Assembly: GCA_029856125.1 (NCBI GenBank)
Contig: JAHQWJ010000120.1
Location: 96,001-160,000, forward strand
Length of the DNA stretch: 64,000 bases
Direction of reading: 5' to 3'
Origin: Promethearchaeia archaeon
GTDB taxonomy: Archaea > Asgardarchaeota > Lokiarchaeia > Sigyniarchaeales > SOKP01
In this document: in pieces, positions 666 through 41,008 of the stretch
Position numbering within the stretch: position 1 is the first letter of the stretch
Layout of the letters: the number at the start of each line of letters is the position of its first letter
The notes under the pieces: generated by a model
Database searches by the model: none
The model's input: the letters and a program-made list of their open reading frames with translations, nothing else
Told to the model about the DNA's origin: nothing
Made by a program: the position numbers and the translations under genes

Positions 666-677
666 TTACTTTAGTAA
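666..677. promoter_or_regulatory. Putative operator TTAC-N4-GTAA (TTACTTTAGTAA)
   Basis: Palindromic motif repeated in 7 intergenic regions of the island; 60 nt upstream of ACAD start. Confidence 0.65.
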
Positions 678-988
678 AATTAGAATTCATCTTAAAATAG
701 GTTTTTAGGTATAGATCTCTCGCTATGCTATGATGTTATGACGAGAAGAGATACAAATTATGAATTCAAATTACGATTCAATATTATCATTTTCAAACAT
801 TGCATCTTTATTAGGTTTTGATGGATCGAATTTTTCAGTTAGGTTAACCTATGAAATTAGTAAAATTAACTTGGGTTACCATATAAGATCTTAAGATTAC
901 TTACGTAGAATATGCTTCTTCATTTAGATTATTTAAATTTAAAGTATGACTAGTATTGAAATAAATCAAAAATAAGAAAAAGGGATTA

Positions 989-2041
989 ATGATGTCTATT
1001 GTTGATTCATCAAAAATAAAACGAGTTGAAATTCTTGAAATACTTGAATCTCATCAAAATTTCCAAACTCAAGTCAATGAAGCCTTTTTTATAGCTGTAA
1101 CTTATACACTTGATGATTACATACCGATTTGGAATAAAGTAAGTGTTTTAAATCAACGATGGCTTAAAGGAGAAAATGTGAAAATTACGCTATCTATGAA
1201 AGAGAAGTTACTTTTAGCAGAACATCTTAGATTTTATATGGAATATAGTGCGGATTATTTGGAAAAGTTATCTCCAATTCCAAAAGATGCTATAAGAAAA
1301 CCAGTAAAAGCCAATAATGTGCCTTGCGAATGGTTTTTCCATAATGGAGCAAAAGAAGATCGAGTTATCTTATATTTTCATGGAGGTGGTCACATTATGG
1401 GGTCTTCTAATAGTCATAAGTTATTTACATTGAAATTAGCAAGAATAACTAATATGAAGGTTTTAAGTATAAACTATCGTCTTGCTCCAGAGGAACCTCA
1501 TCCGGCAGCCTTAGAAGATTGTGTTTCTGTTTACAAATGGCTTCTCTCCTCGGGATATCAATCTAAAAACATTATTATCGCCGGAGACTCTGCAGGAGGT
1601 TATTACACGCTATTAACTTTACTCAAACTACGGGATGATAGAATCTCGTTACCTGCAGGAGCAATATGTCTTTGTCCATCTACAGATTTGGCACTAACTG
1701 GCGAGTCTCTAACAAAAAATTGTTCCACTGACATTATTTTAGGCGATTTAGGGTATATCTGGTGGGTTGATTCTAATTTAGCAGGCAGGAATCCTTTTGA
1801 TGCCACATTTTCTCCTCTTTATGCTGATTTAAAAAGCTTACCTCCCATTTTGCTTCAAGTAAGTACAAGTGAAATGCTGTTTGATGATTCCAAAAGATTT
1901 TTTGAGCTAGCTAAGAAGGCAGGGGTTGATATTTCAATGCAAACCTGGGATAACACCATACACGTATTTCAAAATACCGATTTACCTGAAGCAGAGGAAG
2001 CAATGGAAAAAATTAAAAAATTCACAGAAAAATTCTTTTGA
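989..2041 (+). CDS. Alpha/beta hydrolase, HSL-family esterase/lipase
   Basis: HGGG oxyanion motif, YRLAPE, GDSAG nucleophile elbow, C-terminal HVF. Confidence 0.92.
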   Translation: MMSIVDSSKIKRVEILEILESHQNFQTQVNEAFFIAVTYTLDDYIPIWNKVSVLNQRWLKGENVKITLSMKEKLLLAEHLRFYMEYSADYLEKLSPIPKDAIRKPVKANNVPCEWFFHNGAKEDRVILYFHGGGHIMGSSNSHKLFTLKLARITNMKVLSINYRLAPEEPHPAALEDCVSVYKWLLSSGYQSKNIIIAGDSAGGYYTLLTLLKLRDDRISLPAGAICLCPSTDLALTGESLTKNCSTDIILGDLGYIWWVDSNLAGRNPFDATFSPLYADLKSLPPILLQVSTSEMLFDDSKRFFELAKKAGVDISMQTWDNTIHVFQNTDLPEAEEAMEKIKKFTEKFF

Positions 2042-2073
2042 ATCAAGAGACTTGTGAAAATTCAATAAAAAGA

Positions 2074-2910
2074 CTACTCATCCAAGTATGTGGTCCATTC
2101 TGGTTTTAGTATATAAAATTGATCAATTGCATCCCGCATAGTTTTTCGACAAATTTCAATTTCTCTGATTGTGGGTGGTTCAACTTCTTTCACCTCTTTA
2201 GCAACATTTAGTTCCCAATCAGTTTTTTCTTTTACCTGCTCTATAGTAACATTTGGATGTAAAGCGTCCAGATACGCTTCTTTGGTCACGGAATCAAAAC
2301 GCATAATGCAAAGAGGTGAGATTATAGCTTCAGGGCCCGTATCAGGGGGGTATCCTGCTTTAATTCGACTATCGTAGCCTTTTAAATATCCAGGATCGGT
2401 GATAAAATCCAATTTTTTAATAAATCTACGTTTTGAATGGTCATCTACAAGATAGATCACTCTTTTTGATAAACCTGCGATTTCCGTAGCTCCACCGCCT
2501 CCTGGTAATCGATAAATTGGCTTTTGATAAGGTCCAATTACAGTGGTATTGCAGTTTCCATACTTATCAATACTAGATGTACTTAGTAGTGCCAGAGTGA
2601 CTTCGCCACGTTGAAGAACTGATAAAGCATCAATAGAATCTCCGATAAACAATGAATTTGGGATTAAAACCGGATCACTAATCGAATATGGAAGTTTATC
2701 GGGTTTAGGAAGCTCGTCCTGAAACAAGCCAACTTCTAATACGGTGAAAAGATTTGGGGCATGAAGTAATTTTGCCATATGAACCGCGAGAAACGGCCAA
2801 TGAAAAGCATTAAATACAATATCTTCATCTTTAATCTGTCTACATGCTGAGACTAACATCATCTCAAAGCTGGTATATTCCTTACAATATATTTTTTCAT
2901 CAGTATCCAT
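2074..2910 (-). CDS. Family I CoA-transferase beta subunit (glutaconate CoA-transferase GctB-like)
   Basis: IDKYGNCNTTVIG, RLPGGGGATEIA, LDFITDPG; Glu in VLEVG at the expected catalytic position; overlaps alpha subunit gene. Confidence 0.88.
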   Translation of the reverse strand: MDTDEKIYCKEYTSFEMMLVSACRQIKDEDIVFNAFHWPFLAVHMAKLLHAPNLFTVLEVGLFQDELPKPDKLPYSISDPVLIPNSLFIGDSIDALSVLQRGEVTLALLSTSSIDKYGNCNTTVIGPYQKPIYRLPGGGGATEIAGLSKRVIYLVDDHSKRRFIKKLDFITDPGYLKGYDSRIKAGYPPDTGPEAIISPLCIMRFDSVTKEAYLDALHPNVTIEQVKEKTDWELNVAKEVKEVEPPTIREIEICRKTMRDAIDQFYILKPEWTTYLDE

Positions 2911-39122: not shown

Positions 39123-39146
39123 GAGAGTTTCTTCATTTGAGTTTTG

Positions 39147-40955
39147 TTATTTTTGGTAATCTTGAATTTGATTATCCCACACATTAATTTTTTGTTTCTG
39201 TTGTTCCCATTCATTTCTCATTTCGTTTTTTAAGTATTCTGTGCTTGGCCCAACTGGTAAATTATCTTTAAAGACTATGTATCTTGGAACATGGTAAAAC
39301 GCAAGGTTATGGTATAAGAACCTACTTAATTTTTCAAGGGTTAGCGTAGAATTTTCTGCTTTAACTACATATAAGAGTAAGTCTCCTCTAGTGTGATTCT
39401 CATTAATGATTGGAATACATGTAGATAAAAAGACACTTGGATGTGAATTCGTCATTCTTTCAATTTCTTTTAGATATATTTTTTCTCCTGCTTTAGTTAT
39501 TATCTCATTTGCCTTTCCCATAAAATAAAGAAACCCCTCCTCATCGATGTATCCAAAATCCCCAGTATAAACCCAACCATCATCAACAACTCTTACATCT
39601 GTTGTTTCTGGTTGTTTATAATACTCTAGTGAGTAATTCATGTTTGATTTTACTAAAATTTCTCCAGTATTGTTCGAACCTGCTGTTAACGGGTTTCCAA
39701 ACGTATCTACGATTTTTAGTTCAACAAAATCTAAAGGTTTTCCGACAGAACCACTTTTACCTCCTTTAGATCCTATTGTATTCATCGTTATTCCTACACC
39801 CTCCATGTGGGACCAAAACTCGTATAATGTGATCCCGAATCGATTTTCAAATGATTTCCATAATTCAACACCTGCACCAAATCCATAAGCCAGATCGATA
39901 GAATGATTGCGATCGAGTTTATTTGGTGAATTATTCACAAGTGCATGTAGATACCCCCCAAAATAAGTTAAAACTTCCGGTTTGTGTATCCTAACGTCCT
40001 CCCAGAACTTTTGAACACTAAAATTTTCAGCCAATACCACCGCGGCGTCATAAAATAGAGAAGGAATTATGACATAAAATTGCGTGGCTCCATGAAATAA
40101 AGGCATTGGACAGTAAACTTTGGTTTCTTTTCTTAAACCTATTTTCTTTAACTCTAAACCAATGTTTATAGCAGAAAGAGCTAAGTTTCTGTACAAAACT
40201 CCTTTAGGATTTCCCGTAATTCCTTCTGTATAATTAATTTGAATTGCATCATCATCATAAATATTTATTTTAGGATTTTCTACATTCGAATCAAGAAGAA
40301 ATCGGAAATCGAATATTTTATCGTTAAATTCAAAGTCGCTAGGTGCGTTATAAACATAAACTCGTTTGATTTTTGGTAAAATGTCCAAGAACTTTTCAAT
40401 AGTATTAAAATAATCATAGTCTGTAATGATTATTTCAGTATCAGAATCACTTAGAATGTGAAGTAAAAACTCTTCCCTTAGACCAGTGTTAATGTTAACA
40501 GCAACACATCCCGATTTTAAAACTCCAAACCACAAAAAAAGAAATTCCGGGCTATTTTTCATAAGTAAAGAAATTTTAGGTTTCTTTAGATGCATTTCAC
40601 TTATAATATTTACTATGCCATGAGCGAACTGGTTCGCACTCGCATTTATATCGGAAAAAGAGTATTTATCTTTGTTAAAATATAAGAATGTAAGCTCCCC
40701 ATTCTCCTCTGCTTTTTTTTCTAATAATTTGGGAAGCGTTATATTATTAATTCCAAATTTTCTTAACGTTCTTGAACGTCTGTTATTTTTTGAAATTAAT
40801 ATTGAATCTTTTTGAACTTCAATTAGTATTTCTTCATCCCTTCTAAAGGGAAAAGAGGTGTCATTAGCTATTTTGCTTGGGATATAGATCCAAGTTGTCT
40901 TATACTTCCCCTTTCCAGAAGGTTTAATTACAATTTTACTTTTGCCTAATTCCAT
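39147..40955 (-). CDS. AbrB/SpoVT-like domain fused to CaiC-like acyl-CoA ligase fold with degenerate catalytic motifs (copy 2)
   Basis: N-term KYKTTWIYIPSKIANDTSFPFRRDEEILIEVQKDSILI; YTEGITGNPKG, WSHME, TGD, GKANE, LPVGPSTEYLK. Confidence 0.85.
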   Translation of the reverse strand: MELGKSKIVIKPSGKGKYKTTWIYIPSKIANDTSFPFRRDEEILIEVQKDSILISKNNRRSRTLRKFGINNITLPKLLEKKAEENGELTFLYFNKDKYSFSDINASANQFAHGIVNIISEMHLKKPKISLLMKNSPEFLFLWFGVLKSGCVAVNINTGLREEFLLHILSDSDTEIIITDYDYFNTIEKFLDILPKIKRVYVYNAPSDFEFNDKIFDFRFLLDSNVENPKINIYDDDAIQINYTEGITGNPKGVLYRNLALSAINIGLELKKIGLRKETKVYCPMPLFHGATQFYVIIPSLFYDAAVVLAENFSVQKFWEDVRIHKPEVLTYFGGYLHALVNNSPNKLDRNHSIDLAYGFGAGVELWKSFENRFGITLYEFWSHMEGVGITMNTIGSKGGKSGSVGKPLDFVELKIVDTFGNPLTAGSNNTGEILVKSNMNYSLEYYKQPETTDVRVVDDGWVYTGDFGYIDEEGFLYFMGKANEIITKAGEKIYLKEIERMTNSHPSVFLSTCIPIINENHTRGDLLLYVVKAENSTLTLEKLSRFLYHNLAFYHVPRYIVFKDNLPVGPSTEYLKNEMRNEWEQQKQKINVWDNQIQDYQK

Positions 40956-40996
40956 AATTCTTCTCTCTAGTAATTCAAGTCAAATACTTAAATAAA

Positions 40997-41008
40997 TTAC
41001 TTATGTAA
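40997..41008. promoter_or_regulatory. Putative autoregulatory operator TTACTTATGTAA
   Basis: 42 nt upstream of fusion gene copy 2 ATG, same offset as copy 1. Confidence 0.7.

Follow-up and report, generated by a model that had tools for sequence, protein, structure and literature searches.

The 12-bp palindrome TTAC-N4-GTAA recurs in the intergenic regions of a catabolic gene island of a Promethearchaeia archaeon, most of which lies in the 64-kb stretch of DNA analysed here (G000:C126:96001-160000, termed the window in the following, with positions counted from its first base). The palindrome is quite probably the operator of a local one-component transcription factor that is encoded twice in the island, by the genes for the AbrB-ligase fusion proteins P0001 and P0002. 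Somewhat less firmly, we also favour the wider view that in Asgard (Promethearchaeota) archaea an acyl-CoA ligase was turned into a ligand-sensing transcription factor by an added AbrB-type domain, and that in the present genome the two paralogs govern the whole 50-kb island via single 12-bp operators. The genome comprises 3.69 Mb in 153 contigs with a G+C content of 33%, and the island extends from about 8 kb before the window start through window position 41 kb. An archaea-specific ThrRS editing domain, an AbrB-PhoU protein and an Lrp/AsnC protein identify the DNA as archaeal, and the closest named homologs belong to Promethearchaeota (Loki-type Asgard archaea).

Exactly seven copies of TTAC-N4-GTAA are present in the window when both strands are considered, all of them intergenic and A/T-flanked (Table 1). 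They are the seven exact copies listed in the sequence-only reading, an earlier inspection of the same DNA; none is coding and, as noted there, the region from 41.2 to 64 kb is free of them. When the window was shuffled with its dinucleotides preserved, 0.55 copies of WTTAC-N4-GTAAW and 1.56 of the core 12-mer were expected, and seven was not reached in any of 100 shuffles; the earlier rough estimate of about 0.1 copies by chance was fair, our recount giving about 0.15. In the whole genome, for which rough gene calls were used (3,238 open reading frames (ORFs), 87% coding), the motif occurs 78 times, with 62 coding and 16 intergenic copies, whereas about 119 and 21 are predicted from composition. 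Genome-wide enrichment was therefore rejected, and the signal is one of clustering rather than of abundance: nine of the 16 intergenic copies, i.e. the seven window sites and two upstream of them, fall within C126:88417-136997. Of the 491,616 intergenic bases of the genome, 3,444 belong to this stretch, and the binomial P is 4e-16; the borders of the island were set post hoc, after inspection of the data, but the margin is huge. Within the island, each of the nine spacers of at least 160 bp carries exactly one copy and the eleven spacers of 40-141 bp carry none; the coding sequence is likewise free of copies, and all six divergent promoter regions are marked. The island sites are located 41-123 nt from the nearest start codon, and start-codon distances overall range from 41 to 180 nt. 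Outside the island, the background density is about one copy in 70 kb of intergenic sequence, or about one in 500 kb of genome, and the seven intergenic copies found there lie beside unrelated genes (CAAX protease, ribophorin, NAD kinase, methyltransferase, prenyltransferase-like protein) or between convergent genes. Copies with one mismatch, which the earlier inspection had reported at 897, 17369 and 59064, do not exceed chance level (2 seen versus 2.5 expected in the island) and were rejected as extra operators; the stretch containing the copy at 17369 is deleted in the paralogous promoter.

The half-sites TTAC and GTAA are invariant across the nine island sites and 29 intergenic sites of relatives, and the spacers vary from TTTA to GTAC and GGTC. 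The sites of the relatives are itemised as 18 in the flanks L020-L027, 6 of them upstream of fusion genes, plus a further 5 that precede fusion genes in G220, G215 and G209. Three pairs of marked island spacers are paralogous, namely those of the two ATP-binding cassette (ABC) importers (ABC1/ABC2), of the two fusion genes (ligase 1/ligase 2), and of the acyl-CoA dehydrogenase and crotonase genes (ACAD/ECH); paralogous promoters are 62-66% identical, and all eight half-site bases are kept in them while the 4-bp spacer differs. The suggestion that fixed half-sites with varying spacers reflect the operator of a dimeric transcription factor is supported by this free spacer, by the strict promoter location and by the conservation of the motif in relatives.

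No classical DNA-binding (helix-turn-helix) domain was found by Pfam in any island ORF. P0001 and P0002, which are 61% identical to each other, are the only two island proteins with a predicted DNA-binding-type fold, and the motif is situated 41-42 nt upstream of the start of each. Their Pfam AMP-binding domain starts at residue 78-79, leaving about 75 N-terminal residues without assignment. For these 75 residues of the window proteins, Pfam gave no match even at an E value of 10, and hidden Markov model (HMM) searches against PDB sequences gave nothing significant for the N-domain; an hhalign comparison with the AbrB-PhoU domain encoded in the same genome aligned the expected strand without reaching significance. 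Within a family of 108 members, PF04014 gave weak matches in 14, with a best E value of 1.3e-4. A first AlphaFold2 model of the N-domain from 16 sequences was mediocre, with a predicted local distance difference test (pLDDT) score of 69, and was superseded by one from the 108-sequence alignment with a pLDDT of 87.9. This single-chain prediction has the topology beta-beta-alpha-beta-beta, with strands at residues 8-13, 18-23, 43-48 and 51-56 and a helix at 27-30. In an exhaustive structural comparison with 48,161 PDB representatives, ten chains reached a Z score of at least 2, and all ten are swapped-hairpin DNA-binding domains (root mean square deviation 2.1-3.5 Å over 44-53 residues): VapB1 (5k8j, Z 4.6), Sso7c4 (5itj, Z 4.5), C56 (7xi6, Z 4.2), VapB2 (3zvk, Z 3.9), SpoVT (2w1t, Z 3.9), AbrB (1yfb, Z 3.8), as well as three further VapB chains and MazE. 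Foldseek ranked the same families (AbrB/MazE/VapB/SpoVT type) first, with E values of about 1. The structural scores are modest, as would be expected of a model of half of an obligate interleaved dimer. The link of the domain to AbrB comes from the fold search and from the weak Pfam matches of family members. In terms of the model, an AbrB-like fold of the N-domain is well supported; homology to the AbrB superfamily is probable, and DNA binding by this domain is predicted.

The remainder of each protein is a full-length ligase body of the ANL superfamily (PF00501, E values of 4e-51 and 1e-47 for the two window proteins). Its best solved homologs are 4-coumarate-CoA ligase, FATP2 and FadD13, and every NCBIfam match is below its cut-off. 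The catalytic motifs were compared in an alignment of seven fusion proteins and the two canonical island ligases. The fusion proteins retain the P-loop (A3) in the form YT[ES]GTTGxPKG (YTEGTTGKPKG) and the A7 motif TGD (YTGD). The A5 motif YGxTE is changed to (Y/W)(S/A)(H/L/V)(M/V)E in all seven, and the catalytic lysine of A10 (SGK) is replaced by glutamate in both window proteins and by leucine in the five relatives; the two canonical ligases keep GK and (S/A)TE. Loss of the A10 lysine abolishes adenylation in ANL enzymes. Judged from these motifs, the fusion proteins have the ANL fold but are probably not active members of the superfamily, and because the A10 lysine is lost, the ligase body is more likely a ligand-binding sensor than an enzyme. 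The architecture would be that of a one-component regulator with an enzyme-derived sensor.

The association of motif and fusion gene extends to other genomes. When 201 genomes of the phylum were searched in six frames with the N-terminal 78 aa, the domain was detected in 12; in the window's own family it is fused to the ligase (about 600-616 aa in total), and in two other families it occurs as standalone ORFs of 60-140 aa. A profile search added six copies in five further genomes, and another in 1.84 billion cluster representatives yielded 784 relatives; among the best 150 of these that were listed, most are standalone proteins of 55-100 aa and four, of about 600 aa, contain the full-length ligase as well. 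In eight other genomes, an exact TTAC-N4-GTAA precedes the start codon of 11 out of 14 fusion genes by 12-52 nt (G109, G008, G171, G150 and G209 with one such gene each; G135, G220 and G215 with two each), although the N-domains of these relatives are only about 33-48% identical to those of the window. The spacers of the sites upstream of these genes are ATCA, AATA, TCTA, TTAA, GGTA, TATA, GGTC and AACT. When the window genes are included, 13 of 16 fusion genes (nine genomes, five genera) have an exact copy no more than about 65 nt upstream, compared with about 0.2% of genes as background; the conservation in relatives that the sequence-only reading had proposed to examine is thus confirmed. 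The standalone small homologs of other families (L011-L014, L017, L018, L061) have no exact motif nearby, so that the motif seems to be specific to the fusion subfamily.

In 115 kb flanking the fusion genes of the relatives, 18 intergenic exact copies were found, to be compared with the background outside the island given above. They precede different cargo, such as an operon for a DUF2284 protein, a B12-binding protein and RACo (reductive activator of corrinoid enzymes), or LIV-type ABC transporter genes, and others lie between LIV-type ABC transporter operons. As the motif of the fusion family is kept while the neighbouring genes change, the cis-element travels with the protein family. The DUF2284/B12/RACo operon is conserved and is followed by the fusion gene at L020-L023 and L027 (G109, G008, G171, G156 and G150). 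In G109, G008 and G171, two operators separated by 85-87 bp precede it (TTACGTACGTAA or TTACGTCCGTAA; the TTACGTACGTAA twins are 85 bp apart), and in G156 and G150 a single copy does; the operator would thus serve a corrinoid-dependent pathway in those relatives. Upstream of the fusion gene of relatives, a second copy of the palindrome matching 7 of 8 positions is often found exactly 20 bp, i.e. two helical turns, from the exact one (L005, L006, L009, L058), a sequence arrangement that would suit two dimers binding cooperatively; each of the nine island sites is single, with no such 20-bp partner.

With respect to the genes that are marked, the enrichment upstream of beta-oxidation genes that the earlier inspection had proposed to check holds for the island, but not for the genome as a whole. 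Orthologs of the island long-chain acyl-CoA synthetase in another genus lack the motif, as do the two paralogs of this enzyme in the same genome. Because paralogs of island genes located elsewhere are unmarked, the evidence supports a regulon formed by the local island and not by beta-oxidation genes genome-wide.

The mechanism we propose is as follows. Two N-domains would interlock into a swapped-hairpin barrel whose dyad matches that of the palindrome, so that the dimer would read TTAC and GTAA, with centres 8 bp apart, and leave the free 4-bp spacer unread. One operator in each of nine promoter regions would place about 14 transcription units under common control, with a regulon of esterases/lipases, two Opp-like ABC importers, acyl-CoA ligases, a CoA-transferase, beta-oxidation enzymes, alcohol and aldehyde dehydrogenases, and the regulator genes themselves. 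The ligase-derived body would probably sense an acyl ligand, be it a fatty acid, acyl-AMP or acyl-CoA, and the affinity for DNA would change with this ligand. Since the sites, at 12-60 nt from the start codons of the regulator genes, are situated where the archaeal TATA box and the transcription start are expected, repression is the more likely sign; repression, including autorepression, that is relieved by the acyl ligand bound to the ligase-derived body would be the most likely logic, and activation is less likely. An assignment of TATA and BRE elements by eye was rejected as unreliable, the spacers being 76% AT. DNA binding by the fusion protein, dimer geometry, repression and ligand identity are all predicted features of this scheme.

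Several observations weigh against it. The fold match is exclusive to one superfamily but weak (Z 4.6, Foldseek E of about 1), and Pfam, HMM searches against the PDB and hhalign against AbrB-PhoU gave nothing significant for the window proteins themselves. An exact site is missing from the tally of 13 for three of the 16 fusion genes, two of which have a degenerate site and the third an upstream region outside the inspected set. Several island promoters are paralogous, and hence the nine sites do not represent as many independent events. A pattern scan of the near-complete relative G209 revealed no obvious large site cluster around the fusion gene, and regulon size therefore varies between genomes. 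A further sequence recurring in G209, ATTACAACGGTAAT, is found four times at G209:C4:204328-205313, the copies being 243 or 486 bp apart; it probably belongs to an intragenic tandem repeat that has nothing to do with the operator.

These observations also bear on the alternatives. The palindrome could be a real operator, yet that of another transcription factor whose gene lies elsewhere in the genome (of the Lrp/AsnC, MarR/ArsR or TrmB-like type, for instance), the AbrB-ligase genes being merely members of its regulon; the fusion gene could then be a conserved target of another factor. The moderate fold evidence for a DNA-binding N-domain, the presence of other regulators in the genome, such as the Lrp/AsnC protein listed in Table 1, and the three fusion genes not counted with an exact site are all compatible with this explanation. 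We nevertheless consider it rather improbable: the motif follows the fusion gene through five genera with different neighbourhoods and cargo, no co-travelling second regulator gene was seen in the flanks (which were not screened for one), the N-domain of the fusion structurally matches swapped-hairpin DNA-binding proteins only, and with a site directly upstream of 13 of the 16 copies self-regulation is the simplest reading. We give much less credit to an explanation by segmental duplication, according to which the paralogous ABC cassettes, ligase genes and dehydrogenase/crotonase units took their promoter modules along when they were copied, the 12-mer being a functionless relic. The three paralogous pairs of marked spacers, among them the ACAD/ECH pair with its common flanking sequence, would fit such a history; however, the eight half-site bases stayed intact in spacers that otherwise drifted, promoters which are not paralogous to each other (Fe-alcohol dehydrogenase operon, carboxylesterase/synthetase pair, HpaB/MFS pair) carry the motif as well, and it is retained by relatives with N-domains of 33-48% identity. 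Finally, a general sequence feature, i.e. a variant core promoter element, a restriction/modification site or a small RNA or DNA hairpin, would agree with the A/T-flanked location where TFB recognition elements (BRE) and TATA elements are expected and with the rarity of TTAC-N4-GTAA relative to the reversed (not complemented) control word in relatives (43-73 versus 128-193 copies per genome, i.e. two to four times rarer, in G109, G008, G171, G135, G156 and G209), but is hardly credible, as outside the island a nearby intergenic copy is present at only 7 of about 3,200 genes, which are unrelated, the distance to the start codon is variable, a 4-bp stem is unable to form a stable hairpin, and a modification site would not stay confined to the promoters of one island. 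The rarity relative to the control word may be compositional, as dinucleotide shuffles of the window predict approximately the observed background.

Table 1 Predicted operator copies, candidate regulator genes and further features in and around the island (window positions)
Feature	Position	Strand	Context
Operator TTACTTTAGTAA	666..677	.	Divergent spacer between acyl-CoA dehydrogenase (1-606, minus; start 60 nt away) and Abhydrolase_3 esterase (989-2041, plus)
Operator TTACTATCGTAA	5148..5159	.	102 nt upstream of operon Fe-alcohol dehydrogenase/CoA-transferase A/CoA-transferase B (5046-2074, minus)
Operator TTACTTATGTAA	6799..6810	.	Divergent spacer between carboxylesterase (5209-6744, minus; 55 nt) and long-chain acyl-CoA synthetase + GDSL lipase (6910-9594, plus; 100 nt)
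Operator TTACATATGTAA	17325..17336	.	Divergent spacer between first ABC operon (17231-9629, minus) and its binding-protein gene (17440-19716, plus)
Operator TTACTTAAGTAA	21654..21665	.	41 nt upstream of AbrB-ligase paralog 1; predicted autoregulatory site
Operator TTACGTGAGTAA	32482..32493	.	Divergent spacer between second orfX + ABC operon (32396 to ~24021, minus) and binding protein 2 + two carboxylesterases (32605-38002, plus)
Operator TTACTTATGTAA	40997..41008	.	42 nt upstream of AbrB-ligase paralog 2; predicted autoregulatory site
Two further island operator copies	7,583 and 5,044 bases before window start		One between HpaB-like and MFS genes, the other between crotonase and aldehyde dehydrogenase genes
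P0001, candidate regulator 1	19802..21613	-	603 aa; residues 1-60 predicted AbrB-like swapped-hairpin domain (DNA 21434-21613), residues ~72-595 ANL body
P0002, candidate regulator 2	39147..40955	-	602 aa; same architecture and same changed catalytic motifs as P0001
First ABC operon	17231-9629	-	orfX, Opp-like ABC permeases and ATPases, beta-lactamase-fold hydrolase
Beta-lactamase-fold hydrolase gene	39122-38022	-	Follows AbrB-ligase paralog 2
Long-chain acyl-CoA synthetase	6910-8781		Closest orthologs in another genus
Canonical island ligase	24021-25685		ANL ligase
OppD/OppF-type ATPases (four)	11019-14414, 25787-29419	-	Long N-terminal extensions
orfX pair	16710-17231, 31860-32396	-	Paralogous ORFs of 173 and 178 aa
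AbrB(MazE)-PhoU fusion	47211-48209	-	Outside the island; canonical
Lrp/AsnC protein	54446-54931		
Standalone archaeal ThrRS editing domain	55526-55948	-	Outside the island

The island encodes a 4-hydroxybutyryl-CoA-dehydratase-like HpaB protein and an MFS transporter, two crotonases, an aldehyde dehydrogenase, two Fe-alcohol dehydrogenases, an acyl-CoA dehydrogenase, CoA-transferase subunits, four alpha/beta-hydrolase esterases, a GDSL lipase, two beta-lactamase-fold hydrolases, four ANL ligases and two paralogous Opp-like ABC importers. It looks like accessory DNA that was possibly transferred: the closest orthologs of the long-chain acyl-CoA synthetase, with 56-57% identity, belong to another genus, a search of 11 genomes from the genus of the window gave no ortholog at E <= 1e-80, and the fusion gene is present in only one of 16 genomes of that genus. 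The DNA of the window is also present in marine-sediment metagenomes. In contigs labelled as metatranscriptomic from three marine-sediment runs, almost only the solute-binding-protein gene (17457-19554) was covered within the 10 kb examined, which suggests in situ expression of this gene, the one that follows the site at 17325; the regulator gene is not covered by these contigs, which show neither transcription starts nor strands.

Other features of the DNA are noted here in their own right. The spacers at window positions 606-989, beside the acyl-CoA dehydrogenase gene, and at C126:90776-91030, beside the upstream crotonase gene, have a duplicated stretch in common (AATTCAATAATTAAATAT...CTTTTTAATTTCTTTT) whose end is at the operator, which fits a duplicated dehydrogenase-crotonase unit. 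Each of the two orfX genes, for whose products no Pfam or NCBIfam match was found, heads an ABC importer operon and is the first gene downstream of an operator copy. The four OppD/OppF-type ATPases (486-636 aa) have N-terminal extensions without Pfam explanation, their ABC_tran domain beginning at residues 187-318. Among the genes outside the island, the one for the AbrB(MazE)-PhoU fusion encodes the best PF04014 match of the genome.

Regulators that are comparable in one or the other respect are known from bacteria and archaea. SpoVT of Bacillus subtilis (PDB 2w1t), with which the model of the N-domain shares a Z score of 3.9, likewise combines an N-terminal swapped-hairpin domain of the AbrB type and a ligand-type domain in one polypeptide. 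It differs in its sensor, a GAF domain of about 120 aa instead of the 530-aa fold of an adenylate-forming enzyme, and in its host, a Firmicute and not an Asgard archaeon; moreover, AbrB/SpoVT sites are loosely defined, whereas the site described here is a strict 4+4 palindrome. BirA, an enzyme body fused to a DNA-binding domain, is also adenylate-forming and uses its own adenylate as corepressor. The archaeal RbkR likewise consists of an enzyme body and a DNA-binding domain (PMC5397151). Both BirA and RbkR contain winged-helix domains and keep catalysis, whereas all seven aligned fusions have substitutions at the A10 lysine and the A5 threonine, which suggests that the ligase body is a sensor and not an enzyme. 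Along with SpoVT, the nearest case in architecture is BzdR/BoxR of Azoarcus, a one-component regulator composed of a DNA-binding domain and an inactivated shikimate-kinase fold that senses benzoyl-CoA (PMC3602430). BzdR/BoxR and, by prediction, the fusion proteins regulate a CoA-dependent catabolic cluster by means of a DNA-binding domain joined to an inactive enzyme fold as effector domain; the components differ (XRE-type helix-turn-helix and shikimate-kinase fold versus AbrB-like domain and ANL ligase fold), and there is no sequence relationship.

A functional analogue is FadR of Sulfolobus acidocaldarius, a TetR-family repressor of a 30-kb esterase/lipase and beta-oxidation cluster that also contains the gene of the regulator; it binds a few dyad-symmetric sites there (PMC6449355). 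Its TetR-family helix-turn-helix fold and its 16-bp motif are unrelated to the fold and the 12-mer described here, and no TetR-family gene (TetR_N) was found by Pfam among the island ORFs. With respect to DNA recognition, the closest parallel is provided by the VapB/MazE antitoxins, which are the best structural matches to the N-domain. In the case of VapB2 of Rickettsia felis (PDB 3zvk), each AbrB-type homodimer reads an internal palindrome of about 10 bp, and two dimers bind side by side (PMC3326315), an arrangement paralleled by the near-copy of the motif exactly 20 bp away in relatives. The antitoxins have a toxin partner and act on their own operon only, whereas the fusion proteins have no toxin partner but a C-terminal enzyme fold and about 14 predicted transcription units. 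In the literature searched, including that on Asgard transcription factors, no description was found of a regulator combining AbrB with an acyl-CoA synthetase (ANL) or of a TTAC-N4-GTAA operator.

If the proposal is true, the operator and its targets would be among the earliest examples of a cis-regulatory code and a regulon being defined in Asgard archaea, and the protein would represent a transcription factor architecture absent from the literature searched. The 12-bp site and the 600-aa protein form a precise and cheaply testable pair, and the strict palindrome could serve as a tool for the annotation of regulons in Asgard metagenomes. The family would exemplify the recruitment of an enzyme as sensor domain, with the P-loop kept and the catalytic lysine lost, and the reuse of the same operator with different cargo in different genera. 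In addition, about 14 transcription units for taking up and degrading esters and fatty acids are predicted, a metabolism that bears on the lipid debate in eukaryote origins.

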